DNA of 64,000 nt from Candidatus Margulisiibacteriota bacterium (GTDB lineage Bacteria; Margulisbacteria; WOR-1; O2-12-FULL-45-9), in contig JAYEOW010000029.1 in assembly GCA_034723395.1 (NCBI GenBank), positions 1 through 64,000 on the forward strand, written 5' to 3'. Below, one piece after another: positions 2,834 to 17,749 of the stretch. The position numbers and the translations under genes were made by a program. The notes beneath the pieces were generated by a model that had not been told where the DNA came from, made no database searches, and was given only the letters and a program-made list of their open reading frames with translations. Within the stretch, counting starts at the first letter, position 1. Each line of letters begins with the position of its first letter.

Positions 2834-5800
2834 AAGTTCAGCGAGCCTTCAAAGGTCATCAGTGTGGCGACAAAATTATTATCAGAATTAGCCAGGTCCC
2901 GATAATCGACCGATTTTAGTGAAGCGATAAAAACAAAACTGGTCATGACCGGATTATCCACCGGGACATTGATGTTTAGGCTGTAGGTTTTGGTGGTCTT
3001 TTCTATATCTAGATTCGCGACCGAACCCGATTGCACCTCGCCGCCATTCTTTTCATCCTGCTGGTTGTAGATCAGGGTCCCCCACTCGTAGACTTTGTAG
3101 GAGACCTTGCTATCAATGATCGTTTTGATCCGTTCGGAAGGAGAGACGTTAAGGTCTTTGATAACCTTGGTTATTTTCTCATTGTAATCGGAGCTGAGCG
3201 TTAGGCCCGGATTGGGGGTAAAAGTTACGCCGAGATTTTTTGTCAGATTTTCTGTTTTGGTATCGATCTGGCTGCTGGTGTTAGGGTGGTCATTTTTATT
3301 TTGGTAGTTCTCAAGGGCCAGTCCTACATTTACCGGCACATTCTGGTGGGGGACCAGGCTGACCCGATAGTTTTGAGAAAAAGTATTAGTATCGGTTTGG
3401 ATCCCCTCGATGGTTCCCGATGGCCCGGTTTGGATATTTTCGGACTTGTTAAAAGTCGAGGTCAGCTTTATCCGGTCATGGGCGATAGGGTTCCAGTTCA
3501 GGCTGTAAGTATCTGCATCGCCGGTAGTCTTAAATTTCTCTCCGGTCTCAGGGATAGATTCGCTGTTCGAGCCGCTCCATTTAATATTTGTCCAGGAGTA
3601 AGGGGTGAGCGTGGCGTTAGCAGAGGTCCTTTCTGTCTTTGGATTAACCCCCCCGATAACTAATGTCGATTGTTCCTGCCGGTTATGGTCAAAGGAGGTG
3701 TTTAACTGGCTAAACGGGGTGAGGTCGCTATGGTAGGTTTCGTTCCTGGTTGTAATAACTTCACTGGTAGATACAAAGTTCTTGTAGTCGGTCTGTCCTT
3801 CGTGATTGATCAGGTTTACCCTGGCAGTCCATTTATCTAACGGCCCAAAGGTGAGGTCGGTATTAAAATTATAGGCGGTATCGATCGAACGGGAAAGATC
3901 TCTGGTCGCCTCCACCGAACTGGAATTTTCGGCGATCGTTTTTGGTTCGCTCTTTTGAAAATCATATCCGGCGGAGAACCGGTCGGTAAATTTCAGCTCG
4001 CCGTTAGCATGGATAAAATCGCTGGTGCTTTCAGAAAAACTGCCGCTGTCTTTCTCGCTGTCGGACTGTGAGAAAGACTTTTTACCGTCGTATTTCTGGT
4101 TATACTTCAAGGCCCCTCGCTCCCATTGGGAAGGGATGATATTTATTGAGTAAGTATCCTGCCGTGTGTCGCTGCTGTGGCTTTCTGAAGTAGTTGCAAC
4201 ATCATCTTTGGCCCAGTATTTCCGAAGGCCGACATCGATTTGTACGTTGCCATTTGGGTTTATGCCGGTTGAAACCGAATGGTCGTAGGTCCTTAAGAAC
4301 TTGTCCCTTCGGTTGGCCAACGGGCTGTTGTTCTCTTTAAAGGAATAGCTGGTAAAGAAAGAATGGAAATCTTCCGGCTGGTAGCGTAAATTATAATCGA
4401 GATACCTTGATCCCCGGCCGATCGAAGTCCCCCCCATGGGGGTAAAATCATAATCTATTTTTTTAGTGCTTCCGCCGATAACCAGGGAATCATTAAGAAG
4501 TTTTGTTTCGGCCCCTAATTTATAGGCATAGCCGACCTTGGTGGTAACCGAGGCAATTTGGCTTGAATCCTGGTAGTCGTAATCAATCCTGATCGCATCT
4601 TGCGAGCTGGGGGTAACATAATAAAAGGTTATCTGCCCGGGTTTTGCATAGCTTATGTAGTAATCCTGGTCTTTATTGATAAGGACATCATTGAGATAGA
4701 GTTTTTCGCTGTTTTCTATTATTTCAGTAGGAGAGTGTAAAGTGTAATTTTTGGCATCATTGCCGGAAAAGATCTCAGTGGTGGCTAGTTTGGCAATTAC
4801 CTGGTCGATATCGCTTCTGGCAAAGGCGGTATCGACTTTAAAAAGCTCGCCGATCTTAAAGCTGCCATCCAGTCCTACTACCGACTGGGAAATATCCTGG
4901 CTGGTAAACCCGGATGGGGGGACGTATTGATAGATGATCTGGAAGTTCTTGTTTGTATCAAGCGGATTATTGAATTCGATGTAGGGATTGTCCTGATGAT
5001 AGTTGATAGAGTAGCCAGTATCCCCCGCATCACCCTCGAAACTGGAATTGCGGGTGTAAGTTGTTATTTGGGACGACCCCTGGTCCCAGACCTGGACCGT
5101 TTCTGATCCGGGGACAAGGTTGCGGACATTTTTTAAAAAGTAAGGTCCCTGAGTTCCGTCACCCATGCCCGAATATCTGCCGACAATACTTTTATAGTAC
5201 GCATAGGTAACGACTATTTCGCTGGTGGCGCTGATCGACGCGGGGTTAATAAATTTAATCGTGCCGGTATCAAACCCGTCGCTCGGATCACTGCGATCAT
5301 TGCGGTAGGCGAGCTTTGCTTCGGGGGTTACGATGTAATCGCCGGCATTATTCGGATCGGATTCGGTTTTTGGGAATACGTAATCTACTTCACGAGAAAG
5401 AGCCGCCCCGTCTAATTTTACAATCACATTATAATTGGCTTCGCTGGTCGGGATAATTGGCTTGTTGGTAAGATACATTGTATAGTTATCATCAATAATA
5501 TCTTGTCCGACAGCGCCATCGATTGCGGTGGCGCTGTCGGCAACCGATCCGGCCTTGGCAGATTCTCGAAGATAAGTTACCCCTACCTTAAGTTCTTTTG
5601 GGTGTTTTGATTGGGGAATGGCTGGAAGGGCGGTCTCCATATATTGGTACTTGGCTTTGATCAAAGATGTTGTACTGATGAAAATACCGAAGACAATTTC
5701 GCTGGTCTGGTAATTTATCGTATAATCAAGATCACGCACAAACAGTTTGCCGTCTACTTCGATCCGTTCGCTTTCCGGCACGATATGTTGGTGTTTAAAT

Positions 5801-6927
5801 TGATATGGCCCGCGGCTTCCGATCCCCGGGATAGCTTCAGTTTCTGCCGAAGTTGTATGGTATTGATACTCAACAATTAATGGTTCTTCAGGCGAAGGGA
5901 GAAAGCGGGTAAGGAGCTTAATGTATCCCTCATTGTAGCGGATAAGATAATCTTCGTTTTTTCTGAGTTCCGTCCCCATAAAGGTGAGTTTTTCTCCGAA
6001 TTGGACGACCGGAATATGGTTTAACTGATATTCCCCCGAGGCTTCAGCCTCTGATCGTTCTGATTCAACGGTCCCTGAGATGGGGAAGGTCTGGCGGTCG
6101 GACTTGATAATTGGCTGGGGCCTGGGAAGGGGCCTTCCAAACTCTTCGGGATCGATCGTAAAGCGGGATTGGAATCCGAAAAAATCCCTTTTCGAAAGGG
6201 CCGGGAAAAAGAGATCTAATATATTTGTGTATTCATAACTGTATTTGAACTCATCCGCCGAGGTTAGAATTTCGTTGAATGTGACCTTTCCCTCAAAATA
6301 ATCGATCGTATAATCAACATTGCGGGTAAGGGGATTGCCATTCAATTCTACTGTTTCTGACCCTTCAACGATAGATCCGTGCCCTAAATTATATGGTCCC
6401 TTGGTGTTGTTCCCCTTTTGCGAAGTTAAATTTTGGGTTTGGCTTTTAAGTTTTGCGGAAGGGACGGTGGTAATATCATACCAACTGTCTTTAGCTGTCA
6501 GCATAACACCATTTAAATACTTTGAAGTTGAGGCAAATTCGTTCCCCGAAAAGTTCGCGGTAATATCGCCGAAGGTCAGCTCATTATTATAATATTTTAC
6601 CCTGACATCAAAACGGTCCGGCACTTCGGGCTGCTGCTCAAGATCGTAACTAACCGATAAGTTTTCCGAAAGCTGGCCCAAGATCCTAAGCTGTAATCTC
6701 TCCTGCCATGGGCCGCCGGTAAAGGTTGGATAGTATCCGCCCAGTTGAGTTAGCCCGCTGAAGTAGTTTTTGAGGGGAGAGACATCGGCTTTTTTATATT
6801 CCCACTTTTTGAAGCCGGAAATATCTAATTGAGGATAGGTTCCCTGCTGAGCGAAGACCATTCCGCTCGACAGCAGCCATAACGAGGCTGCCAAAGCGAT
6901 AAGCTTGGCGATGAATAACTTTTTCAT
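2830..6927 (-). CDS. Large outer-membrane beta-barrel protein, SprA/Sov-like
   Basis: Signal peptide; about six repeats of the type GPY.L.H..IV.GSE.V..NG..L.R..DY.I.Y..G.I.F; C-terminal half rich in amphipathic strands; ends in Phe (TFEGSLNF). Start overlaps the fabF stop (TAATG). Confidence 0.65.
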   Translation of the reverse strand: MKKLFIAKLIALAASLWLLSSGMVFAQQGTYPQLDISGFKKWEYKKADVSPLKNYFSGLTQLGGYYPTFTGGPWQERLQLRILGQLSENLSVSYDLEQQPEVPDRFDVRVKYYNNELTFGDITANFSGNEFASTSKYLNGVMLTAKDSWYDITTVPSAKLKSQTQNLTSQKGNNTKGPYNLGHGSIVEGSETVELNGNPLTRNVDYTIDYFEGKVTFNEILTSADEFKYSYEYTNILDLFFPALSKRDFFGFQSRFTIDPEEFGRPLPRPQPIIKSDRQTFPISGTVESERSEAEASGEYQLNHIPVVQFGEKLTFMGTELRKNEDYLIRYNEGYIKLLTRFLPSPEEPLIVEYQYHTTSAETEAIPGIGSRGPYQFKHQHIVPESERIEVDGKLFVRDLDYTINYQTSEIVFGIFISTTSLIKAKYQYMETALPAIPQSKHPKELKVGVTYLRESAKAGSVADSATAIDGAVGQDIIDDNYTMYLTNKPIIPTSEANYNVIVKLDGAALSREVDYVFPKTESDPNNAGDYIVTPEAKLAYRNDRSDPSDGFDTGTIKFINPASISATSEIVVTYAYYKSIVGRYSGMGDGTQGPYFLKNVRNLVPGSETVQVWDQGSSQITTYTRNSSFEGDAGDTGYSINYHQDNPYIEFNNPLDTNKNFQIIYQYVPPSGFTSQDISQSVVGLDGSFKIGELFKVDTAFARSDIDQVIAKLATTEIFSGNDAKNYTLHSPTEIIENSEKLYLNDVLINKDQDYYISYAKPGQITFYYVTPSSQDAIRIDYDYQDSSQIASVTTKVGYAYKLGAETKLLNDSLVIGGSTKKIDYDFTPMGGTSIGRGSRYLDYNLRYQPEDFHSFFTSYSFKENNSPLANRRDKFLRTYDHSVSTGINPNGNVQIDVGLRKYWAKDDVATTSESHSSDTRQDTYSINIIPSQWERGALKYNQKYDGKKSFSQSDSEKDSGSFSESTSDFIHANGELKFTDRFSAGYDFQKSEPKTIAENSSSVEATRDLSRSIDTAYNFNTDLTFGPLDKWTARVNLINHEGQTDYKNFVSTSEVITTRNETYHSDLTPFSQLNTSFDHNRQEQSTLVIGGVNPKTERTSANATLTPYSWTNIKWSGSNSESIPETGEKFKTTGDADTYSLNWNPIAHDRIKLTSTFNKSENIQTGPSGTIEGIQTDTNTFSQNYRVSLVPHQNVPVNVGLALENYQNKNDHPNTSSQIDTKTENLTKNLGVTFTPNPGLTLSSDYNEKITKVIKDLNVSPSERIKTIIDSKVSYKVYEWGTLIYNQQDEKNGGEVQSGSVANLDIEKTTKTYSLNINVPVDNPVMTSFVFIASLKSVDYRDLANSDNNFVATLMTFEGSLNF

Positions 6928-8168
6928 TAAGCGTTATATTTTTTAACGACCAATACCGCGTTGTGTCCGCCGAACCCGAAAGATTCCGATATGGCGGTAT
7001 TTACCGGCGCTTTTCGCGCCTGGTTAGGCACATAATCAAGGTCGCATTCCGGGTCCGGAACCTCATAATTGATGGTTGGTGGAATTATACCATTGTTTAT
7101 GGTGAGGACGGTAGCGATCATTTCTACCGCTCCGGCGGCGCCTAAGAGATGGCCGACCATCGATTTGTTCGAGCTGACCGGTATTTTTTTAGCGCGTTCG
7201 CCAAAAACAGATTTTATGGCCACTGTTTCATATTTATCATTAAGGACAGTAGATGTCCCATGCGCGTTGATGTAATCAACCTGTTCGGAAGTGGCCTTTG
7301 CGTCCCTAAGCGCGGCTTTAATAGCGCGTGCGGCTCCCTCGCCTCCGGGGGCGGGGGCGGTGATGTGATTTGCGTCTCCGCTCATCCCATAGCCCGCGAG
7401 TTCAGCATAGATCTTCGCTCCGCGGGATTTGGCGAATTCGAGATCTTCAAGGACAACTATTCCGCTACCTTCCCCTATAACAAATCCGTTTCTCTCTTTT
7501 TCGAATGGGCGGCTGGCATGTGCAGGATCATCATTTCTTGTTGAGAGGGCGCGGGCAGCGCAAAAGCTCCCCACCCCGATAGGGGAGATCGAAGCCTCTG
7601 TGCCTCCAGCAACCATCGCTTTGGCGTCCCCCCGCTGAATTATCTTAAACGCGTTACCGATAGAATTTGTTCCGGTAGCGCACGCGGTTACCACGCATGA
7701 ATTAGGCCCTTTTGCTCCGAGTTTAATAGATGTATAACCAGCAGCCATGTCGGTGATCATGTAGGGGACAGTGAAGGGGCTAAGTTTTTCCACCCCTTTT
7801 TCCAGCAGGATTTTTATTTGTTTTTCGAGGAAGTTGATCCCGCCTATTCCCGAACCGATAATAACGCCAACATCTGCGGCATTATCCGTAGTGATAGGCA
7901 GGTCGGAATCTTTTACCGCCATCATTGATGCGGCGATGGCGAACTGGATAAAACGGACCAAACGGCGTGCTTCTTTTTTGTCCAGGAAATCCGCCGGGTT
8001 GAAATCTTTGACCTCGGCGGCGATCTGGGATGGATAAGTGCTGGCGTCAAAATGAGTTATCTTTCCGACCCCATTTTTTCCGGAAATTAGATTGTTCCAA
8101 AAAGCCTCTTTCCCAATGCCAATTGGGGAGACGAGCCCCATGCCTGTAACAACGACGCGATTCGTCAA
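6927..8168 (-). CDS. fabF: Beta-ketoacyl-ACP synthase II
   Basis: [37 protein letters not shown] motifs. Confidence 0.96.
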
Positions 8169-9124
8169 CCCTCTACCTCCTCGACTTCTTTTACCAACTC
8201 ATTGATAATTTTAGCCGCGGGCCGGATACTCCGGTCCTTTATCTTCCAGACATTCTCTCCAGAAAAAACGACCCCGTTATCGATGTCCCCCTTCTGGGAG
8301 TTGATCAATGCCTGGATAATACAGTATTCAAGGGAGCAATTTTTAAGACAAAAATCGCAGCCAACCGGCTTGGGGGCTGTTTTGGTCAACAGCTTTTCGA
8401 TGAAAGCAGTTTTTATCGCCCGGCCGGGCAGGCCGACGGGTGACGGAATGATTACCACATCTTCTTTCCGGGCTGTTTGGTACCGTTGTTTATAGGAAAG
8501 GGCGGCATTACATTCTTCAGAAAGGACAAATTTGGTAGCGATCTGGACTCCACTCGCTCCAAGTTTGAGCATTTCTACAATGTCTTTACCATCAGTAATT
8601 CCTCCGGCGGCAATTACTGGCAGTTTGACCGCCTTTAATACTTCCGGAAGAATCTCTTTGATGGAACGATCGGTCCCCAAATGTCCGCCAGCTTCTTTTC
8701 CTTCGACCACGATTGCGGCGGCCCCACATCGCTCGGATGTTTTGGCCAGCCGGGCCGAAGAGACGATTGGAACAACGGAGGTCTTGTTGTCCTGACCGAA
8801 CTTAAATATATCTCGGGAAAAACCAGCCCCAACAAATATGAGGTCGATTTTTTCCTGGACGGCGGTCTTAACAATTCCCCAGAATTCCCGCGCGGCGAAC
8901 ATAATGTTGATCCCAATAATACCGCCCATAGATTTGGATCGGGCGAGCCGGATTTCATTGGCCAGCTCGTCAAAAGACATGCCCGAAGCGCCAATTACCC
9001 CGACCCCCCCCGCAGCGGCAACCGCTCCGGCAAGCGAACCAGTGGAAATCCTTATTGCCATCCCCCCCTGGATTATGGGGATCCTGGCGACAAAATCAGC
9101 AATTTTCAATTCAGGCAACTTCAT
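8165..9124 (-). CDS. FMN-dependent nitronate-monooxygenase-family enzyme (FabK/FabX-like) with a C-terminal 4-Cys cluster
   Basis: [32 protein letters not shown] and [13 protein letters not shown]; lies in the fab operon. Confidence 0.8.
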
Positions 9125-9128
9125 TTTA

Positions 9129-9374
9129 TTACTTCTTTGCGTGAGACATGATATAGGTTACCGTGTCCCCGATGGTTTTTATCTTTTCCGCGTCTTCATC
9201 CGGGATCTCGGTGCTAAAAGCCTCTTCCAGCGCCATTACTAACTCAACTGTATCCAGCGAGTCAGCTCCCAGGTCGTCGACAAAAGAGGCTTCTCTCTTG
9301 GCCTCGGCCTCTGAAACTCCAAGCTGTTCAACTACAACCTTTTTAACCTGTTCATAAACTTGATTCTCATCCAT
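9129..9374 (-). CDS. acpP: Acyl carrier protein
   Basis: [21 protein letters not shown] 9374 preceded by a GGGGGTG SD. Confidence 0.96.
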
Positions 9375-9390
9375 TAAATTCACCCCCTTT

Positions 9391-9430
9391 TTTAATTATT
9401 AATTGATTAATTTGATTAATTGTTAATTGT
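9391..9430. repeat. Degenerate ~7-nt-period repeat (ACAATTA on the minus strand) between fabG and acpP
   Basis: Minus strand reads ACAATTA ACAATTA ATCAAATTA ATCAATTA ATAATTA. Confidence 0.7.
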
Positions 9431-9431
9431 C

Positions 9432-10163
9432 TCATGTGTTCATCAACATCCCGCCGTTAACATTTATTACCTGGCCGGTAATATAGTCAGCAGCGCTGCT
9501 AGCTAGAAACAGGGCGGAAGCGGCAATGTCTTCCGGCAGTCCGAGCTTTCCAAGCGGAATATGTGCCAGCATATTTTGCTTAACATCTTCAGGAATCTTA
9601 TCAGTCATGGCGGTTTTAATAAAGCCGGGGGCAATCGCGTTTACGGTTATTCCGCGGGCGGCAAACTCCCGGGCCAATGTCTTGGTTAGGCCGATAACTC
9701 CCGCTTTTGATGCGGAATAATTCGCCTGTCCCACGTTTCCCATTTCCCCAACGATCGAAGCAATGTTAATGATCTTTCCCGAACGCTGCCTCATCATCAA
9801 TATGGCGGCTGCTTTAGAAACATTAAAAACGCCAGTCAGGTTAACATTGATCACCGTGTCCCAATCCTCTTTTTTCATTCTGATGAACAAAGTATCTTTA
9901 GTGATGCCGGCGTTATTAATCAGAATGTCGATCTTGCCCAGCTTCGCCTTGGCCTCTTTTATTCCGGCATCTACGTCTGCCGGGTCCACGACATTCATCT
10001 TTAGCGGAAGAGCATTCAATTCATTTGCTGTCCGGGTTGCCAACTCTAAATTAATGTCGGTTATAATTACTTTTGCTCCTGCCCTTGCAAAGGCGACGGC
10101 GATCTCCTTACCTATTCCCTGCGCGGCGCCAGTGATCAGGACAACACTATCTTTTAGATGCAT
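9432..10163 (-). CDS. fabG: 3-oxoacyl-ACP reductase
   Basis: TGAAQGIG, NNAGIT, YSASK SDR motifs; fab context. Confidence 0.95.
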   Translation of the reverse strand: MHLKDSVVLITGAAQGIGKEIAVAFARAGAKVIITDINLELATRTANELNALPLKMNVVDPADVDAGIKEAKAKLGKIDILINNAGITKDTLFIRMKKEDWDTVINVNLTGVFNVSKAAAILMMRQRSGKIINIASIVGEMGNVGQANYSASKAGVIGLTKTLAREFAARGITVNAIAPGFIKTAMTDKIPEDVKQNMLAHIPLGKLGLPEDIAASALFLASSAADYITGQVINVNGGMLMNT

Positions 10164-10165
10164 GT

Positions 10166-11047
10166 TTATACCTCCTGGAAACTTTTTACTTCAACGCTCC
10201 GGTCACATTTTTTGATCAAGCCGGCAAGGATATTTCCTGAACCGACTTCAATAAAACTTTTGGTACCGTCCGCGACCATTTTCTTTACCGAATCTTCCCA
10301 CTTGACCGGATTGGTAACCTGTTTGTATAAAAGGTCCCTTATCTCGGGCCCATTAGTGGCATAATCGGCGGTGACATTTGCCACCACCGGGATCTGAGCG
10401 TCTTTAACCTCGATCTTATCGAGCTCAGCTTTAAGTTTATCGGCCGCCGGCTGCATTAGAGCGCAATGAAAGGGGGCGCTAACCTGTAAAGGGACTGTTC
10501 GCTTTGCTCCAGCCTCTTTACAAAGGGCCGAAGCCTTTTCTACCGCCTCTTTTTTCCCTGAGATCACGACCTGTCCGGGAGAGTTTAAGTTTGCAGCAGA
10601 AACAACTCCAAGCTCAGATGCCTTGATACAGCAATTATCAACCTGATCTTTTGCTAGTCCTATAATTGCCGCCATGCTTCCCTCACCTAAGGGGACCGCT
10701 TCCTGCATAAATTTTCCACGCAAATTTACGATCCTGACCGCATCCTCAAAGGTGATCGAACCGGCTGCCACTAAAGCTGAGTATTCACCAAGGCTGTGTC
10801 CGGCAACGGCTGAAGGGGAGGGGATCCCTTTATTTTTTAAGAACTCGTACGCGGCAACGCTAACGGTTAAGATCGCGGGTTGGGTAATCTCGGTCTTTTT
10901 TAATTTATCTCCCGGGCCTTCAAAGCAGAGCTGCTTAAGATCAAAGCCAAGTATCTGGTTAGCTCTGTCCAAATAGGCTTCAGCCAAGTTTTTGCCCATA
11001 CCTATAACTTGTGACCCTTGTCCAGGGAACACAAAGGCGGTCTTCAT
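10166..11047 (-). CDS. fabD: Malonyl-CoA:ACP transacylase
   Basis: FPGQGSQ, GHSLGEY, SAPFH. Confidence 0.96.
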   Translation of the reverse strand: MKTAFVFPGQGSQVIGMGKNLAEAYLDRANQILGFDLKQLCFEGPGDKLKKTEITQPAILTVSVAAYEFLKNKGIPSPSAVAGHSLGEYSALVAAGSITFEDAVRIVNLRGKFMQEAVPLGEGSMAAIIGLAKDQVDNCCIKASELGVVSAANLNSPGQVVISGKKEAVEKASALCKEAGAKRTVPLQVSAPFHCALMQPAADKLKAELDKIEVKDAQIPVVANVTADYATNGPEIRDLLYKQVTNPVKWEDSVKKMVADGTKSFIEVGSGNILAGLIKKCDRSVEVKSFQEV

Positions 11048-11051
11048 GGTA

Positions 11052-12266
11052 CTATCCTCGTATTTCTTTTAATTTGTTGGTCAACATAGGGACAAACTGG
11101 AACAAGTCCCCAACAATACCGTAGGTAGCGACCTTAAAGATCGGGGCATCCGGATCTTTGTTGATCGCTATAATAATATCTGATGATTGCATTCCAACTA
11201 AGTGTTGGATCTTTCCCGAGATCCCGCAGGCGATATAAAGTTTCGGGGCAACTGTTTTACCCGTTTGTCCAACTTGGTGGTGCGCAGAAATCCAGCCGGC
11301 GTCAACCGTGGCGCGGGATGCGCCTACCGCCCCGCCAAGCTCCTTTGCCAAGTCTTCGATCAGCTTAAAGTTTTTCGCTTCGCCGATCCCGCGGCCGCCG
11401 GAGACGATAATTTCAGCCTCAGTTAAATTTACCTTAATTGATTCATCTTTAATGATCTCAATAAGTTTTACGATCAGGTCTTCCGGGCTAACCACTGGAT
11501 TAAATTTGATAAGCTCACCTTTTCTCCCCTCTTCTTTGTCCAGTTTTCTGAAAACTTTTGGCCTAACGGTGGCCATTTGCGGACGGTTGTCGGGGGAAAT
11601 AATAGTGGCCATAATATTGCCGCCAAAAGCGGGGCGGGTTTGTTGCAGTATTTTCTTTTCCGGGTCGATTGACAGCCCGGTACAATCGGCGGTCAATCCT
11701 GCGCCGATGCGGATCGCTAAACGAGCGGCCAGGTCTCTCCCCATGGTGGTTGCGCCAAGGAGAAAAACTTCTGGTTTATACTTGGTTAGTAGTTCAGCGA
11801 TCGCGCGGGTATAAGGGAGTGTTTTATAATCTTTTAATTCATCGTGGTGGAGGAGATATACTTTATCTGCTCCGTAAGCAAAAAGGTGGGAGACCTCTTC
11901 TTCTATATCTTCTCCCCCGCAAAGGACGGCTGAAAGATCGGTCTTAAGATCGGTAGCCAGTTTTCTGCCTTCGCCCAAAAGTTCATATGCGACCGGTTGG
12001 ATCTTTCCCTCCCTCTGTTCGGCAAATACCCAAACCCCTTTGTGGTGGCTAAGGTCGGTAGAACTCTCTTTTTCGATCTTGATCTCGATCGCACCGAACT
12101 TACAAGCATCTACGCAAGCGCCGCAAAGAGTACATTTATCAAGGTCGATAATCGCCAGTTTTCTGGGATCCCCTTCTCTCGACTGCATTTCGATCGCGCC
12201 GAAAGGGCAAGCCTTAACGCATAAAGTACAGCCGCTACATTTATCAGCGAAAACCTGGATGCTCAT
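11052..12266 (-). CDS. etfA: Electron transfer flavoprotein alpha subunit with an N-terminal 2x[4Fe-4S] ferredoxin domain
   Basis: CSGCTLCVKACP and CTLCGACVDAC; GLTADCT, TRPAFGG, VSGGRG, QVGQTGK, GISGKIQH. Confidence 0.93.
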   Translation of the reverse strand: MSIQVFADKCSGCTLCVKACPFGAIEMQSREGDPRKLAIIDLDKCTLCGACVDACKFGAIEIKIEKESSTDLSHHKGVWVFAEQREGKIQPVAYELLGEGRKLATDLKTDLSAVLCGGEDIEEEVSHLFAYGADKVYLLHHDELKDYKTLPYTRAIAELLTKYKPEVFLLGATTMGRDLAARLAIRIGAGLTADCTGLSIDPEKKILQQTRPAFGGNIMATIISPDNRPQMATVRPKVFRKLDKEEGRKGELIKFNPVVSPEDLIVKLIEIIKDESIKVNLTEAEIIVSGGRGIGEAKNFKLIEDLAKELGGAVGASRATVDAGWISAHHQVGQTGKTVAPKLYIACGISGKIQHLVGMQSSDIIIAINKDPDAPIFKVATYGIVGDLFQFVPMLTNKLKEIRG

Positions 12267-13048
12267 CAGATTATCTTCCTCTCTTTGATCTTAGAAACTA
12301 AGCTGGAGACAACGTCCGCTGGTTCTCCCTGCAGGACCTCTCCTCCGCCTTTGGGAGGAGGGGTAAAGATCTTAACTACCTGGGTTGGAGAACCTTTTAA
12401 TCCCAGGTTTTTTTCATCAGCGTTGAGTTCCGCAGCCTTTAACGTTTTAATTTCGGCCTTTTTAGCGCGCATCATTCCCTTGAGCGATGGCATGCGCGGT
12501 TCGTTGATCTGCTTTACTACGGTGATTACCGCAGGAAATGGGGTTTCTACGACTTCATTAGCCTCCTCAAGAAGGCGTTCAACTTTTGCATTGTCACCTT
12601 CAGCTTCGATCTTAACCGCAAAAGTAACCGATGGAATATTTAACCATTCGGCGATCCCCGGTCCGACTTGAGCGGTATCCCCATCGATCGCTTGCTTACC
12701 ACAAAGGATCAAGTTGTAGTCGCCGATCTTTTTTATCGCCTGGGCGAGGGTGTAAGAGGTTGCCCAAGTGTCGGACCCGGCAAAAGCGCGGTCAGATATA
12801 AGATAAACTTCGTCCGCACCCATAGCAATGGTAGTTTTAAGGGCTTCTGCCGCCTGTGGGGGGCCCATAGTGATCACGGTAACTTTCCCTCCATGCTTTT
12901 CCTTTAGCTTTAGGGCGGCTTCCAGGGCATTTTCATCAAAAGGGTTAATGATGGACGGGACGCCCTCCCGGATCAGGGTATTGGTTTCAGGATCGATCCT
13001 GACCTCTGTTGTTTCCGGGACTTGTTTTATGCAAACTAGGATCTTCAT
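12266..13048 (-). CDS. etfB: Electron transfer flavoprotein beta subunit
   Basis: VCIKQVP, INPFD, DRAFAGSDT, CGKQAIDGDTAQVG. Confidence 0.95.
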   Translation of the reverse strand: MKILVCIKQVPETTEVRIDPETNTLIREGVPSIINPFDENALEAALKLKEKHGGKVTVITMGPPQAAEALKTTIAMGADEVYLISDRAFAGSDTWATSYTLAQAIKKIGDYNLILCGKQAIDGDTAQVGPGIAEWLNIPSVTFAVKIEAEGDNAKVERLLEEANEVVETPFPAVITVVKQINEPRMPSLKGMMRAKKAEIKTLKAAELNADEKNLGLKGSPTQVVKIFTPPPKGGGEVLQGEPADVVSSLVSKIKERKII

Positions 13049-14208
13049 TTCTTTTTCTTAATGTTTTCCTTGATAAGTTTTAGGGCGATTTCGTTTCTTT
13101 GTATTTGGTTGGTCCCTTCGTAGATCTGGGTGATCTTGGCGTCCCGCATCATTTTCTCAACCGGGTATTCGCGCATATATCCGTAACCGCCAAGGATTTG
13201 AACAGCATCGGTGGTGACCTTCATAGCTGTGTCTGATGCAAAAAGCTTTGACATGGAGGAATATAAAGTATAATCCTTCGATTTGGCATCGATCATTCTT
13301 GCTGTGGCATAGACCAGGGATCGAGCTGCTTCCAACCGGGTCGCCATGTCCGCTAAAATATGCTGGACGGCCTGAAAAGAAATGATCGGTTTTCCAAATT
13401 GTACGCGCTGGCGGGCATAACTGACTGCCTCATCAATCGCTCCCTGGGCAATTCCGAGCGCTTGTGCCCCGATTCCCGGACGGGTTATATCGAGGGTTTT
13501 CATGGCGACGATAAATCCCATCCCTTCGCGGGCGAGCAACTGGCTTTTATGTACCTTACAATCCTGGAAAACAAGTTCGCGGGTCGCGGAACAGCGGATC
13601 CCCATCTTTTTCTCTTTTTTGGCGAAGGTAAAGCCAGGGGTCCCTTTTTCGATGATAAAGGCCGACGCCCCGCGGCTCCCCTTGTTTTTATTGGTCATGG
13701 CGATCAATGTGTAAACCTCGGCCTCTCCGCCGTTGGTGATCCATTGCTTGGTCCCGTTTATGACATAGTAATCGCCGTCCTTAACCGCGGTAGTTTCTAC
13801 CCCGGCGGCGTCTGATCCGGCATTTGCTTCGGTAAGTCCGAAAGCTGCCAGTTTCTTGCCGGCGGCAATATCGGGCATATATTTTAATTTCTGTTCGTGA
13901 GAGCCGAAAAGCAGGATTGGGGCGGATCCGAGGGCGGAGGCGGCAAAGGTGACGCCTACTCCTCCGCAGGCGCGGCTGATTTCTTCGGTAGCCAGGCAGA
14001 AATTAAATATTTTCTGGCCCATTCCGCCGTACTCTTCCGGGATGTAGAGGCCGCAGAGATCGGCGTCGGCTAAAGCTTTAATTATATCCCAAGGGAACTC
14101 TTCTTTTTCGTCCAGTTCCGCGCGTACCGGAACAATCTTTTCAACCGCGACCTTACGTGCCAGCTCCCTGATCATCTGTTCTTCTTCAGTTAGCATGTAA
14201 TCGAGCAT
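13045..14208 (-). CDS. Acyl-CoA dehydrogenase (Bcd-like)
   Basis: FGLTEANAGSD, NGTKQWITNG, KMGIR, RVQFGKPI, QILGGYGY, IYEGTNQIQR. Confidence 0.93.
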   Translation of the reverse strand: MLDYMLTEEEQMIRELARKVAVEKIVPVRAELDEKEEFPWDIIKALADADLCGLYIPEEYGGMGQKIFNFCLATEEISRACGGVGVTFAASALGSAPILLFGSHEQKLKYMPDIAAGKKLAAFGLTEANAGSDAAGVETTAVKDGDYYVINGTKQWITNGGEAEVYTLIAMTNKNKGSRGASAFIIEKGTPGFTFAKKEKKMGIRCSATRELVFQDCKVHKSQLLAREGMGFIVAMKTLDITRPGIGAQALGIAQGAIDEAVSYARQRVQFGKPIISFQAVQHILADMATRLEAARSLVYATARMIDAKSKDYTLYSSMSKLFASDTAMKVTTDAVQILGGYGYMREYPVEKMMRDAKITQIYEGTNQIQRNEIALKLIKENIKKKK

Positions 14209-14211
14209 TTT

Positions 14212-15180
14212 TTATCCTTCCCACCTAATAATATTGGCTCCGCAGGTCAGGCCGGCGCCAAACCCGGAAAGGGCCACAACATTGCCCTTTTTTATCTTAC
14301 CATCAGACAATGCTTCATCCAGTGCCAGGGGGATCGAAGCGGCCGAGGTATTACCGTATCTGTGAAGATTAACATAAACTTTTTCTTTTGGCAATCCCAT
14401 TTTCTTGCTAACATGGTCAATAATCCGCGAGTTTGCCTGGTGGGGGATTAGCAGGTCGATATCGCTTACTTTTAAGTTTGCTTTCTCAAGCGCTCCGTAC
14501 AGGGACTCCTCTAATACCCTTACCGCAAACTTAAAAACTTCTTTACCGTCCATGGTTATAAAACGGCCATTCTGGTTTTCCGGATCGCGCGAGCCTCCTC
14601 CCGGCATGACCAAATGATGTCCGAGATGTCCCTCTGCTTTTAGCCAGCTGGCCAGAACCCCGGATCCGTCATCTTTTGCTGTTAATACTGTCGCTCCCGC
14701 GCCATCTCCAAACAGGATGCAGGTCCCACGATCTTTCCAGTTAAGGTACTTTGTTAGCGTATCTGCGCCGACCACCAGTATGTTTTTATAATTGCCGTTT
14801 TCAATAAAGGTTGATCCGACAGTTAGGGCGTAATTAAATCCCGAACAAGCGGCAGACACATCGAATGCCGCCGCTTTGGTTGCTTTTAAGCGGTTTTGAA
14901 GGATACAACCAACGGAGGGAAAGAGATAGTCAGGAGAAGTTGTTCCGACAATAATCAGGTCGAGCTCTTCGGCCGGGAAATTCGCCTTTTGCAGCGCTCT
15001 TTCAGCGGCGATAAAGGCAAGATCCGAAGTTGATGTCCCGTAGTCCGAAATCCTTCTTTCCTGGATCCCGGTACGGGTCCGTATCCAATCATCGGACGTT
15101 TCGACTATTTTACCGAGATCATCATTGTTTATAACCTTTGGCGGGGCACAGGAGCCGACGCCGATTATTGAAGCCCTCAT
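14212..15180 (-). CDS. fabH: Beta-ketoacyl-ACP synthase III
   Basis: AACSG, PHQAN, YGNTS catalytic triad motifs. Confidence 0.96.
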   Translation of the reverse strand: MRASIIGVGSCAPPKVINNDDLGKIVETSDDWIRTRTGIQERRISDYGTSTSDLAFIAAERALQKANFPAEELDLIIVGTTSPDYLFPSVGCILQNRLKATKAAAFDVSAACSGFNYALTVGSTFIENGNYKNILVVGADTLTKYLNWKDRGTCILFGDGAGATVLTAKDDGSGVLASWLKAEGHLGHHLVMPGGGSRDPENQNGRFITMDGKEVFKFAVRVLEESLYGALEKANLKVSDIDLLIPHQANSRIIDHVSKKMGLPKEKVYVNLHRYGNTSAASIPLALDEALSDGKIKKGNVVALSGFGAGLTCGANIIRWEG

Positions 15181-16169
15181 AAACTTTCGCCTACTTTCGA
15201 TATCGCGCCAACCATGTTGTTTTCGACCGCTTCAAAAGATTCGCGGATCGCGTTCTTGATCGCCCGCGCTTTGGAGCGGCCATGAGCCTTGTAAACTACA
15301 GCCGATATGCCGAGCAGTGGAGCGCCGCCGTATTCATCGTAGGTGATTTTCTTTCGAAGCCTAAGGAGCGCCGGTAAAAGGAGGGCTAACCCGACCTTAT
15401 TTAGAATTCCCCTGGAAAGCTCTCCCTTAAGAAGGTTAAATATCACCCCGGCAATACTTTCGCCAAATTTTAAGATCAAGTTGCCGACAAATCCGTCGCA
15501 GACGATGACATCCGCTTTGCCGTTAAATATTTCTTTGGACTCGACGTTACCGATAAAATTAAGAGGCAATTTTTCGAGCAGCAGCCAGGTTTCGCGGGTA
15601 AGCTCGTTCCCTTTTTCTTTTTCCTCGCCGATATTCAAAAGCCCGACCTCCGGGCTTTTGATATGCAGAACATGCTGGGCGTACAGACTTCCCATCATGG
15701 CAAACTGTTCCAGGTGTTTTGGCTTGCAATCGACATTTGCCCCCATGTCCAGGAGGAGGACCTTTCCGGAGGGGAGAGGGAATTCGGTAGCAATGGCGGG
15801 ACGTTCGATCCCTTTTATTCTTCCGAGCTTAAAAAGGGAGGCGGCCATCAGGGCGCCTGTGCTTCCCGCAGAAACGACCGCGTCCGCCTTTCCTTCTTTT
15901 ACCAGCGATACGGCCACATTTACCGATGCCCCCTTCTTTTGTTTGACTGCCTGGGCGGGAGCCTCGTCCATATCGATCACTTCGGTGGAGTTTACAATGC
16001 CAAGCTTTTCCTTGTCTTTGTAGCAAGAAAGCTCTTTTTCAACGCGGGATTGGTTTCCGACTAAAATAATTTCGGCGTCCGGGAGCTCACGGCTGGCAAG
16101 GACGGCGCCTTTAATAATCTCGGAAGGAGCGTGGTCCCCCCCCATTGCATCGAGGGCGATCCTAGTCAT
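15177..16169 (-). CDS. plsX: Phosphate acyltransferase
   Basis: IALDAMGGDHAP, DMGANVD, VCDGFVGN, YGGAPLLG. Confidence 0.96.
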   Translation of the reverse strand: MTRIALDAMGGDHAPSEIIKGAVLASRELPDAEIILVGNQSRVEKELSCYKDKEKLGIVNSTEVIDMDEAPAQAVKQKKGASVNVAVSLVKEGKADAVVSAGSTGALMAASLFKLGRIKGIERPAIATEFPLPSGKVLLLDMGANVDCKPKHLEQFAMMGSLYAQHVLHIKSPEVGLLNIGEEKEKGNELTRETWLLLEKLPLNFIGNVESKEIFNGKADVIVCDGFVGNLILKFGESIAGVIFNLLKGELSRGILNKVGLALLLPALLRLRKKITYDEYGGAPLLGISAVVYKAHGRSKARAIKNAIRESFEAVENNMVGAISKVGESL

Positions 16170-16376
16170 TTATTCTTTTCCCTTCTTGCCTTTTTTCTCT
16201 TTTTTATTTTTTATGGTACGGCCTTTGTAGGTGCCGCAGGAGGGGCAGGCGTGGTGGGGGAGAGAGGGCGCGCCGCATTGCGGGCACTTCCCGTGAAGGG
16301 TTGCGGAAAGGCGATAATTACTGGACCGTCGCTTCCCCTGTCTAACATTTGAATGTCTTTTTTTGGGCATTGGCAT
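16170..16376 (-). CDS. rpmF: 50S ribosomal protein L32 (Zn-binding type)
   Basis: MPMPKKRHS...CPQC...HHACPSCGTYKGR; yceD-rpmF-plsX synteny. Confidence 0.95.
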   Translation of the reverse strand: MPMPKKRHSNVRQGKRRSSNYRLSATLHGKCPQCGAPSLPHHACPSCGTYKGRTIKNKKEKKGKKGKE

Positions 16377-16379
16377 GGT

Positions 16380-16814
16380 TTATTTTTCTCCTTTAATTCC
16401 TTTGCAGTCCGGGCTGCACAAAGTTTTTATTGGTATCGATAATAAAAGGTCCTGCCGGATCATTTCACTAAGATCGATCGTATTGTCTTCTTCGATCGGG
16501 TAGACAAAATCCTCCGGACGGAGCTCCGTGCTCCCGCTGCTTTTCGAGATGAAAGGCTCTTTGGAAAATTCCTCTTCCAGATCGATCGCAAGCGGGACCT
16601 TATATTTTTTCAGGCATCTTGAGCATTCAAGCTCGGCTTCGGTTTCGGCAGTGCCGGTTAGATAGACCGAATCCCCGACATTTACCAGATGAAGCTGGAC
16701 CTTGACCGGTTTTGAAAGGTTGAGATCGTCATCGGGGAAACTGATTTTGTCAGTTTCTTCGATATCCACCTCGTTCCCAGCCTTTTGCAAGACTTCCGTA
16801 AGGTCAATTTTCAT
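16380..16814 (-). CDS. yceD: DUF177/YceD family protein
   Basis: ECSRCL and LCSPDCKG motifs; upstream of rpmF; start taken at MKIDL. Confidence 0.9.
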   Translation of the reverse strand: MKIDLTEVLQKAGNEVDIEETDKISFPDDDLNLSKPVKVQLHLVNVGDSVYLTGTAETEAELECSRCLKKYKVPLAIDLEEEFSKEPFISKSSGSTELRPEDFVYPIEEDNTIDLSEMIRQDLLLSIPIKTLCSPDCKGIKGEK

Positions 16815-16870
16815 CCTTAAAGCCTTTCGGGACAACAAGGGTTAATTATACTGAAGTTTGGGGGGGGTTG

Positions 16871-17749
16871 TCAATGTGTCGCCCGGGGATGGGCCGAATC
16901 GTAGACCTCCTTAAGCCGCTCTTTAGTAATATGCGTGTAAACCTGAGTGGTCGAAAGTGAAACGTGGCCGAGAAGCTCTTGAACTACCCGAAGGTCGGCT
17001 CCGCCTGACAAAAGATGGGTTGCAAATGAATGTCGAAGAGTATGTGGAGTGACTTTCTTAGAGATCCCCGCTTTTTTTGTGTAGTAAACGATCATTCTCT
17101 CGACGGAACGGGTGGTCAATCTCCCTCCACGGTGGTTTATAAAAAGGGCTGGGTTTTTATTGCCGGAAAGAAGCCCTGTTCTTCCTTCTTTAATATAATT
17201 CGATAGGGCTTTTTTTGCGTGAGAGCCGAAAAGGACGATCCGCTCTTTTGACCCTTTCCCTAAAACCTTGATTTCCCCCTCATCAAAGTCGATATCATTG
17301 AGGTTTATGCGAATGATCTCGGTAACGCGCAGGCCGGTCCCGTAGATTAATTCTAAAATTGTTTTATCGCGCAAGCCTTTTGCCTTTCTTAGGTCGGGAG
17401 CCGTAAACAGCGAATTAATCTCTTCCGGATAGAGGAAGTTTGGAAGTTTTTTTGGGAGCTTAGGAGTTAACAGATTTTCAAACGGGTTCTGTTTGATGAT
17501 TTTTTCCCGGGAGAGGAAGCGAAAGAAAGATCTGGCGGATGAAAGTTTCCGCGCAATTGATCGGCGGGAAAACTTTCTTTTCTCGAGCGCCGAGAGATAT
17601 TCTCTGGCAGATGCCCGGTTAACCTTTTTGATGTCGACAAGTTTAGCCAATGATCTTAAGTCGCGCTGATAGTTGCTTAATGTGTGAGGGGAGTAGTTTC
17701 GTTCGGTTTTTAAGTATTTAATGAATTGATCGATCAGATCAGAGGCCAT
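16871..17749 (-). CDS. xerC: Tyrosine recombinase XerC/XerD family
   Basis: ERNYSPHT, GLRVTE, GKGSKER, PHTLRHSFATH, LLGH, TTQVYTH, HPRA. Confidence 0.88.
   Translation of the reverse strand: MASDLIDQFIKYLKTERNYSPHTLSNYQRDLRSLAKLVDIKKVNRASAREYLSALEKRKFSRRSIARKLSSARSFFRFLSREKIIKQNPFENLLTPKLPKKLPNFLYPEEINSLFTAPDLRKAKGLRDKTILELIYGTGLRVTEIIRINLNDIDFDEGEIKVLGKGSKERIVLFGSHAKKALSNYIKEGRTGLLSGNKNPALFINHRGGRLTTRSVERMIVYYTKKAGISKKVTPHTLRHSFATHLLSGGADLRVVQELLGHVSLSTTQVYTHITKERLKEVYDSAHPRATH

Follow-up and report, generated by a model that had tools for sequence, protein, structure and literature searches.

Positions 1 to 64,000 of contig JAYEOW010000029.1 from a Candidatus Margulisiibacteriota bacterium (assembly GCA_034723395.1), a stretch of 64,000 nucleotides hereafter called the window, contain a three-gene cassette, acd-etfB-etfA, that lies between fabH and fabD in an operon for type II fatty-acid synthesis (FAS II) and codes for an acyl-CoA dehydrogenase (ACAD)-family flavoprotein and the two subunits of an electron-transfer flavoprotein (ETF). 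From sequence comparison and gene content, we propose that the ACAD and its CarDE-type EtfAB function as the enoyl-acyl carrier protein (enoyl-ACP) reductase of FAS II, possibly also reducing ferredoxin, and give this reading a probability of about 0.55. It was one of the roles offered in an original prediction made from the window alone and is the best supported, by conservation across phyla, by exclusion of FabI in two phyla, by FabI-bearing operons that lack the cassette and by genomes in which no other candidate was found. One argument made for it, the implied lack of any enoyl reductase in the operon, was wrong, since a FabK/FabX-family gene at 9124-8165 (the NMO gene) had been overlooked. 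The most economical explanation of the pattern would be a non-orthologous displacement, in which the cassette does the job of FabI in strict anaerobes of many phyla.

The acd-etfB-etfA cassette in the fatty-acid synthesis operon

The cassette consists of acd (13045-14208, minus strand, as are all genes of the operon), coding for a 387-aa protein with the Pfam ACAD N, M and C domains, etfB (12266-13048), whose 260-aa product is of the bifurcating type by sequence, and etfA (11052-12266), whose 404-aa product begins with a 2x[4Fe-4S] ferredoxin domain of the CarE type (two Fer4 matches, ETF and ETF_alpha). It is part of one tightly packed operon (16874-6927) that includes yceD-rpmF-plsX-fabH-acd-etfB-etfA-fabD-fabG-acpP-NMO-fabF. 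A gap of 3 nt separates fabH from acd, acd and etfB overlap by 4 nt, etfB and etfA share 1 nt, and etfA is followed by fabD after 4 nt; the open reading frame (ORF) coordinates thus agree with the predicted placement, in which fabH and fabD flank the cassette and no junction exceeds 4 nt, and acd-etfB-etfA is translationally coupled inside the operon. A promoter-like site, TTGACA-18-TATAAT (16845-16874, minus strand; 12/12 matches), is directly upstream of yceD, is the sole 12/12 match within 6500-17500 in a promoter scan and is likely to be the operon promoter. The terminator scan returned five minus-strand sites from 15467 to 8827, each weak (three G-C pairs) and all inside coding sequences, with no convincing internal terminator among them. 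Gene spacing together with these scans argues for co-transcription of the cassette with the fab genes.

Conservation of the cassette within the class and across phyla

The synteny is not unique to this genome, and the insertion is conserved in its relatives. The ACAD was found in 40 of 41 relatives (window genome counted) with 72-84% identity, and among 20 larger loci from ten families of the class plsX-fabH-acd is kept in all 20 and etfB lies downstream in 19; one of these loci (L067) runs out of contig right after acd, and in several others the sequence stops short of fabF. The arrangement of the cassette in the fab operon is not due to chance. Eight of the 20 relatives carry inserts of 1.1-4.3 kb at the acd/etfB or etfA/fabD border (loci L057, L062-L066, L068 and L069), which are composed of unrelated accessory genes, not extra pathway genes (18 ORFs scanned, six without a family), and their distribution suggests that the cassette borders are recurrent insertion hot spots. 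DUF4143 ATPases, a YhcG nuclease, a protein kinase, FGE-sulfatase-like proteins, an AAA ATPase and a sigma-70-like protein are among the inserted genes.

A cross-phylum scan with one genome per species yielded 583 confirmed relatives among 600 candidate stretches, of which the best 80 were analysed. The ACADs of these best 80 loci are 63-81% identical to that of the window and come, going by record titles, from at least eight phyla, including Actinomycetota, Nitrospirota/Thermodesulfovibrionia, Thermodesulfobacteriota, Elusimicrobiota, Bacillota, Verrucomicrobiota, Edwardsbacteria, UBP2 and others. Thirty-eight of the 80 are fab-linked (two or more fab or pls genes in the same orientation), 23 of them with etfBA as well; the remaining 42 have etfBA only (13 loci) or neither (29 loci). 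Arrangements differ among lineages and include fabH-acd-etfBA-fabD, plsX-acd-fabD-fabG-acpP-fabF, which is without etf and fabH, and fabF-rnc-acd-etfBA. Pairwise identity among 61 ACAD orthologues ranges from 59 to 97% (median 69%), and in the loci of other phyla the ACAD is 63-75% identical to that of the window, compared with 41-59% for the PlsX, FabH, FabD, FabG and FabF encoded there. No crotonase, thiolase or 3-hydroxyacyl-CoA dehydrogenase was found with Pfam among 166 ORFs of 20 loci (129 in 12 loci and 37 flanking ORFs in the other eight).

Mutual exclusion of the ACAD and FabI

The ACAD and FabI rarely occur in the same genome. Among 81 Nitrospirota genomes that are at least 85% complete, 36 have the ACAD (E<=1e-150) and 40 have FabI (E<=1e-25), six have neither and only one has both, its FabI-like match being weak (33% identity). 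In the phylum of the window genome (109 genomes), the ACAD was found in 68, FabI in 32, both in none and neither in nine, one of which has its ACAD split over two contigs. The ferredoxin-fused EtfA follows the ACAD: it is present in 35/36 of the Nitrospirota ACAD carriers, in many cases unlinked to acd or on a different contig, and in 0/39 of the genomes with FabI only. Twenty genomes of other phyla were chosen for carrying the ACAD, and a FabI-like match was found in one of them, while NMO is present in 12. In the eight chosen genomes that lack NMO, none of the short-chain dehydrogenases/reductases (SDRs) scanned (29 of 42 matches) was named FabI, and in the small Endomicrobiellum genome FabG is the only SDR.

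A sister operon without the cassette was found in the FabI-bearing genome G188, where plsX-fabH-(3 nt)-fabD-fabG-acpP-NMO-fabF corresponds to the window operon minus acd-etfB-etfA. No ACAD of any kind was found in the four FabI-bearing genomes of family f39 that were tested (0/4), nor any ETF in these four and genome G162 (0/5). A tree of FabD, FabG and NMO (20 taxa, 910 columns, FastTree) placed the cassette-less clade of families f38 and f39 (support 1.0) among ACAD-bearing lineages, with a sister relation to an ACAD-bearing genome that has 0.66 support under an assumed root. Together with the sister operon, the tree fits a loss of the cassette that accompanied the acquisition of FabI.

The neighbouring FabK/FabX-family protein as an alternative reductase

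The NMO gene (8165-9124; PF03060, E 4.6e-50), located between acpP and fabF, provides the main rival explanation, in which its four-cysteine (Cys4) product would be the enoyl-ACP reductase, as a FabK variant fed by ferredoxin or by the ferredoxin domain of EtfA, and ACAD-EtfAB would have another lipid-linked redox role, such as supplying low-potential electrons. Family membership and gene position speak for it, as do the presence of NMO in 28/36 of the ACAD-bearing genomes of Nitrospirota and 61/68 of those of the window phylum, the Cys4 motif, which implies an Fe-S partner such as ferredoxin, and a few genomes that have NMO where ACAD and FabI were not found. We nevertheless consider it improbable, and the exclusion data favour the ACAD. 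NMO is missing from 8/36 of the Nitrospirota ACAD carriers, which have no FabI either, from 7/68 of those in the window phylum (window-type NMO) and from 8/20 of the chosen genomes of other phyla. It also coexists with FabI, in 9/40 of the FabI carriers of Nitrospirota (39 genomes have NMO there) and in 5/32 of those of the window phylum, all from family f39 (71 genomes with window-type NMO), and the Cys4 motif is retained in the f39 and related loci examined. In f39 it persists without any Etf in the genome, and the tight exclusion between ACAD and FabI would be left unexplained. FabX and FabI likewise coexist in Helicobacter pylori.

The 319-aa NMO protein reads as a candidate FabX-like Fe-S flavoprotein. 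It scores 198.8 bits with the FabK model TIGR03151, below the cut-off of 453.1, and near-equally with Thermotoga maritima FabK (153.5 bits, the best match of solved structure) and H. pylori FabX (149 bits). Its four cysteines, within a stretch of 14 residues, align with C300/C304/C308/C320 of FabX, the ligands of the [4Fe-4S] cluster: two match position for position, a third is off by one residue and the last follows a shorter loop. The His of GGH also aligns. The Cys4 insert is located where, according to the passages on FabX structure in PMC8626469, an Fe-S subdomain sits in place of the NAD(P)H motif of FabK. Among 16 aligned relatives, C259, C263 and C268 never vary and at least 90% retain C256. 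The predicted model (pLDDT 91.7) has H. pylori FabX as its top three fold matches (TMq 0.87-0.89), followed by FabKs (0.82-0.85); a protein atlas look-up returned generic NMO clusters only. Like H. pylori FabX (PDB 7E1Q), it would be an FMN TIM barrel with four Cys at the position of the [4Fe-4S] ligands, and it coexists with FabI in some relatives. Unlike FabX, it is shorter (319 versus 363-372 aa), has the spacing C-x2-C-x3-C-x4-C instead of C-x3-C-x3-C-x11-C and scores almost as well with FabK. If the cassette is the enoyl-ACP reductase, the NMO protein would more probably serve the branch that makes unsaturated fatty acids, as a FabX-like enzyme, than act as the main reductase.

Variants of this family were seen elsewhere. 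Nitrospirota loci L157, L159 and L160 encode longer NMO proteins (ORFs of 341-440 aa) with another Cys pattern, C...C...CxC, in the same region, and these may represent a further Fe-S variant within the family. In L225 (genome G148) and L137, an NMO/FabK-like gene that lacks the cysteines and shares about 32% identity with the window NMO lies divergently beside etfA-etfB-acd, with the cassette outside any fab operon.

Similarity of the cassette proteins to bifurcating complexes

The window ACAD is a member of its superfamily, with PF02771, PF02770 and PF00441 all above cut-off, and E364 of its YEG motif, which we take from the literature on medium- and short-chain acyl-CoA dehydrogenases to be the catalytic base, is invariant across the 61 orthologues. 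The closest solved structure is Clostridioides difficile Bcd (5OL2_C, E 3.3e-129), to which it aligns without large indels, followed by Bcd of Acidaminococcus fermentans, with CarC farther away (4.8e-94). Bit scores of about 575-618 within the ACAD group across phyla, compared with 434 for 5OL2_C, suggest that its members are closer to each other than to the solved Bcds. The top five solved relatives of EtfB are CarD (6FAH_B, 2.3e-83), C. difficile EtfB (5OL2_B), A. fermentans EtfB (4KPU_B), LctB (7QH2_B) and T. maritima EtfB (7KOE_A), all of which belong to complexes known to bifurcate or confurcate electrons. The E-values of canonical ETFs are poorer by about 50 orders of magnitude, with human ETF beta reaching only 1e-33. 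EtfA aligns over its full length, ferredoxin domain included, to CarE (6FAH_A, E 5e-134), and all 44 extracted EtfA orthologues are 393-415 aa long. The motifs reported in the original prediction, NPFD, DRAFAGSDT and CGKQAIDGDT of EtfB and TRPAFGG of EtfA, were all recovered in the alignments, and the 2x[4Fe-4S] domain claimed for EtfA corresponds to two Fer4 stretches (residues 3-61) with two CxxCxxCxxxC groups.

No NCBIfam equivalog cut-off was reached by ACAD, EtfB or EtfA, and the scores with the acryloyl-CoA reductase models AcrC, AcrA and AcrB are below theirs (452.7 versus 640, 387.8 versus 600 and 270.2 versus 475, respectively). Models for ACADs that act on carrier proteins (MbtN and prolyl-PCP dehydrogenases) match the window ACAD weakly. 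Bifurcating (group 2) ETFs bind a second FAD in EtfB in the place of AMP. In the alignments, EtfB G123 (AIDGDTAQVG) falls at the Gly of CarD and of C. difficile EtfB. Passages of a 2025 paper in the Journal of Biological Chemistry (PMC12630350) describe a Gly (A. fermentans Gly123) that all bifurcating ETFs share and for which canonical ETFs have bulky residues; EtfB G123 probably corresponds to this residue, a match in numbering that we infer. These features suggest that the EtfAB is of the bifurcating CarDE type.

Three characterized systems invite comparison. CarCDE of Acetobacterium woodii (PDB 6FAH) has the same layout of ACAD, EtfB and EtfA with an N-terminal 2x[4Fe-4S] ferredoxin domain. 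It differs in that the window ACAD is nearer to Bcd than to CarC, the neighbours of the cassette are FAS II genes and the presumed substrate is ACP-bound; a domain scan found no caffeate/phenylacrylate activation genes in the operon, and no genome-wide search for them was made. Bcd-EtfAB of C. difficile and A. fermentans (5OL2, 4L1F and 4KPU) shares the gene order acd-etfB-etfA and an Etf that is, by sequence, of the bifurcating type, whereas a pathway forming crotonyl-CoA was not found in the window genome and the EtfA of the window is ferredoxin-fused. Bcd of Fusobacterium nucleatum, driven reductively by its ETF without bifurcation according to passages of PMC12630350, offers a fallback mechanism for the cassette. 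In that ETF, as described there, a bulky residue replaces the Gly and no ferredoxin domain is present, whereas the window EtfB keeps the Gly.

Proposed mechanism

Based on these systems, the ACAD and the ferredoxin-fused EtfAB would form a complex like CarCDE or Bcd-EtfAB, in which NADH would reduce the FAD of EtfB; one electron path would then lead through the FAD of EtfA to the FAD of the ACAD, where a trans-2-enoyl-thioester would be converted to an acyl-thioester, and the other would probably leave by way of both [4Fe-4S] clusters of EtfA and end at ferredoxin. We infer the direction of the reaction, the ACP carrier, the NADH donor and the bifurcation to ferredoxin, the coupling to ferredoxin from the CarDE-type sequence of the Etf. 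The proposed chemistry matches that of known enoyl-CoA reductases with the same architecture, Bcd-EtfAB and CarCDE. CoA and ACP both carry acyl groups as pantetheine thioesters. Anaerobic Saganbacteria are described in passages of PMC6349859 as having Rnf and membrane hydrogenases, which are sinks for reduced ferredoxin.

Among the steps of bacterial fatty-acid synthesis that vary, the one concerned has been studied best; it is also a drug target, and four classes of enoyl-ACP reductase are known (FabI, FabL, FabK and FabV). The cassette would resemble them in its proposed reaction, in its place in the FAS II operon and in a phyletic distribution of the kind seen when a non-orthologous enzyme displaces FabI. 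Unlike them, it has the fold of an ACAD with an ETF and not that of an SDR or a TIM-barrel flavoprotein, and it would comprise three subunits with two or three FADs and two Fe-S clusters and receive electrons through Etf, not directly from NAD(P)H. A more far-reaching version, which we put forward tentatively and with the odds against it, is that bifurcating ACAD/ferredoxin-EtfAB constitutes a fifth class, that each elongation cycle yields reduced ferredoxin and that this class is standard in strict anaerobes of many phyla and replaced by FabI in their aerobic relatives.

Conventional roles and other reductases in the window genome

The genome assembly that contains the window (1.68 Mb, 97% complete) was searched for the partners of a conventional Bcd-EtfAB. 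No thiolase (PF00108) was above cut-off, the sole sub-threshold match being FabH, the ECH_1 crotonase (PF00378) had no matches, and 3-hydroxyacyl-CoA dehydrogenase (PF02737, 3HCDH_N) gave weak N-terminal Rossmann matches only, none of them credible. The observation in the original prediction that no thiolase or crotonase is nearby therefore extends to the whole genome, and a role in butyrate fermentation was rejected. Its statement that fabI, fabV and fabZ are missing from the operon is literally true. It had proposed a genome-wide search for fabI, fabK, fabL and fabV: no FabI-like sequence was found at E<=1e-12 with Escherichia coli FabI as query, FabV gave no match in a search with an uninformative control, and the operon holds the FabK/FabX-family gene. 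A reductase of the medium-chain dehydrogenase/reductase (MDR) type was not found in the genome. Its SDRs are FabG and one other, which lies between KdsC-like and NeuB-like genes in a sugar-synthesis context. With neither FabI nor an MDR reductase and with one SDR in a sugar context, the candidates for enoyl reduction are limited to the ACAD-Etf cassette, a second ACAD and the NMO protein.

The cassette could instead be an ordinary Bcd-EtfAB or an acryloyl-type enoyl-CoA reductase that serves fermentation, redox balance or the supply of FabH primers, its place in the fab operon being incidental. The nearest solved relatives are C. difficile and A. fermentans Bcd-EtfAB and CarCDE, the genes are annotated as putative Bcd/EtfAB in these lineages in the passages of PMC6349859 that concern them, and 42 of the best 80 loci show no fab linkage. 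We regard this as quite unlikely, because searches of the nearly complete genome gave neither a thiolase or crotonase nor a credible 3-hydroxyacyl-CoA dehydrogenase, and FabI, MDR-type reductases and FabV (the last with an uninformative control) were likewise missing from the results. Moreover, none of the pathway genes sought lies beside acd in the 20 scanned loci, fab linkage recurs in several phyla, and the gene has been lost exactly where FabI is present. Primer supply to FabH, the other role that had been suggested for the cassette, was rejected because no source of enoyl-CoA was found and some fab operons with the ACAD, such as plsX-acd-fabD, have no adjacent fabH. Least probable of all is an oxidative role, in which ACAD-EtfAB would be an acyl-ACP dehydrogenase giving trans-2-enoyl-ACP for anaerobic unsaturated-fatty-acid synthesis, with Etf as acceptor, since this usual ACAD reaction, the backtracking established for FabX in passages of PMC8626469 and the carrier-protein-acting ACADs of NCBIfam are set against an operon that already has a FabX-like gene, an Etf that is by sequence of the NADH-linked bifurcating type, an exclusion of FabI that would go unexplained and genomes without FabI, NMO or FabV matches that would be left without any reductase.

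The genome has exactly one EtfB, one EtfA and two ACADs. The second ACAD (381 aa, 35% identical to that of the operon) belongs to a second lipid cluster (contig C28, 9135-15769, plus strand; locus L006), together with a FabA-like protein (218 aa; NF003509, 123.6 with a cut-off of 124), a KASIII-like, a FabZ-like and a KS I/II-like protein, two PlsC-type acyltransferases and AcpS. The cluster has no Etf of its own, and the single EtfAB may serve both ACADs; a comparable second ACAD was found in only one of 40 relatives. A fabZ outside the operon is fused to LpxA, in a 426-aa FabZ/LpxA fusion (contig C17, 910-2190, plus strand; locus L007) within lpxC-fabZ/lpxA-lpxB.

Points against the proposed role

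Several points weigh against the proposal that ACAD-EtfAB is the enoyl-ACP reductase. To our knowledge, the characterized close relatives of the ACAD (Bcd, CarC and AcrC) all use CoA esters. The FabK/FabX-family gene in the same operon could itself encode the reductase, and NMO is present where neither ACAD nor FabI was found in four genomes of the window phylum (G186, G153, G024 and G199, the locus of the last stopping at a contig end) and three of Nitrospirota (G061, G071 and G080). The exclusion between ACAD and FabI is confounded by phylogeny and oxygen lifestyle, because anaerobes and aerobes separate as whole clades and genomes that are related cannot count as independent samples. One genome without NMO (G042) has a FabL-like SDR below cut-off, and the SDR census of the eight NMO-less genomes is incomplete, covering 29 of 42 matches. 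FabV (PF12241) was found in 0/21 genomes, a result of little weight as its control matched in no genome either. Finally, a remark in Matheus Carnevali et al. (2019; PMC6349859), as far as its passages on these genes go, holds that the Bcd/Etf of Margulisbacteria/Saganbacteria is unlikely to bifurcate; the Gly of EtfB and its relatives of bifurcating type are at odds with this remark.

Implications

Genes named Bcd/EtfAB are routinely read as markers of butyrate fermentation in metabolic reconstructions based on metagenomes. Full-text searches of PubMed Central papers under Creative Commons licences and of bioRxiv found no description of an ACAD/Etf enoyl-ACP reductase, and to the extent of this open-licence literature the statement that no bifurcating step of fatty-acid synthesis has been described held up. 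In the passages of PMC6349859 on this lineage, the genes are treated as putative Bcd/EtfAB and not as an enoyl-ACP reductase, and the F. nucleatum paper (PMC12630350) describes no such reductase either. New here are the counts of FabI exclusion in two phyla, the sister operon without the cassette, the co-occurrence of the ACAD and the ferredoxin-fused EtfA when they are unlinked and the FabX-like nature of the neighbouring gene; the cassette probably represents a complex of the Bcd/CarCDE type in a new, anabolic role. If this is true, an ACAD-Etf class would explain lipid synthesis in many cultured and uncultured anaerobes without FabI, FabK, FabL or FabV, an anabolic pathway could recover energy as reduced ferredoxin, and the reading of lipid hydrogen-isotope signals from anaerobes and the interpretation of Bcd/EtfAB genes in metagenome-based reconstructions would change. 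As the cassette has just three genes, it is a directly testable candidate.

Other genes of the operon

Upstream of the cassette, the operon encodes YceD (DUF177; 16380-16838; PF02620, E 1.8e-19), the 68-aa ribosomal protein L32 (rpmF; 16170-16376; PF01783, E 2e-17), the phosphate acyltransferase PlsX (15177-16169; TIGR00182, 392 bits, above cut-off) and the ketoacyl-ACP synthase III FabH (14212-15180; TIGR00747, 408.5 bits, above cut-off), whose gene overlaps plsX by 4 nt. Downstream are fabD (10166-11047; TIGR00128, 380 bits), fabG (9432-10163; TIGR01830, 322.9 bits), acpP (9129-9383; TIGR00517, 110 bits), the NMO gene and fabF (6927-8168; TIGR03150, 639 bits). The fabF stop overlaps by 1 nt with an ORF of 1365 aa (2830-6927, minus strand), which falls in no Pfam family and has a weak local match to SprA of the type IX secretion system (T9SS) translocon alone.

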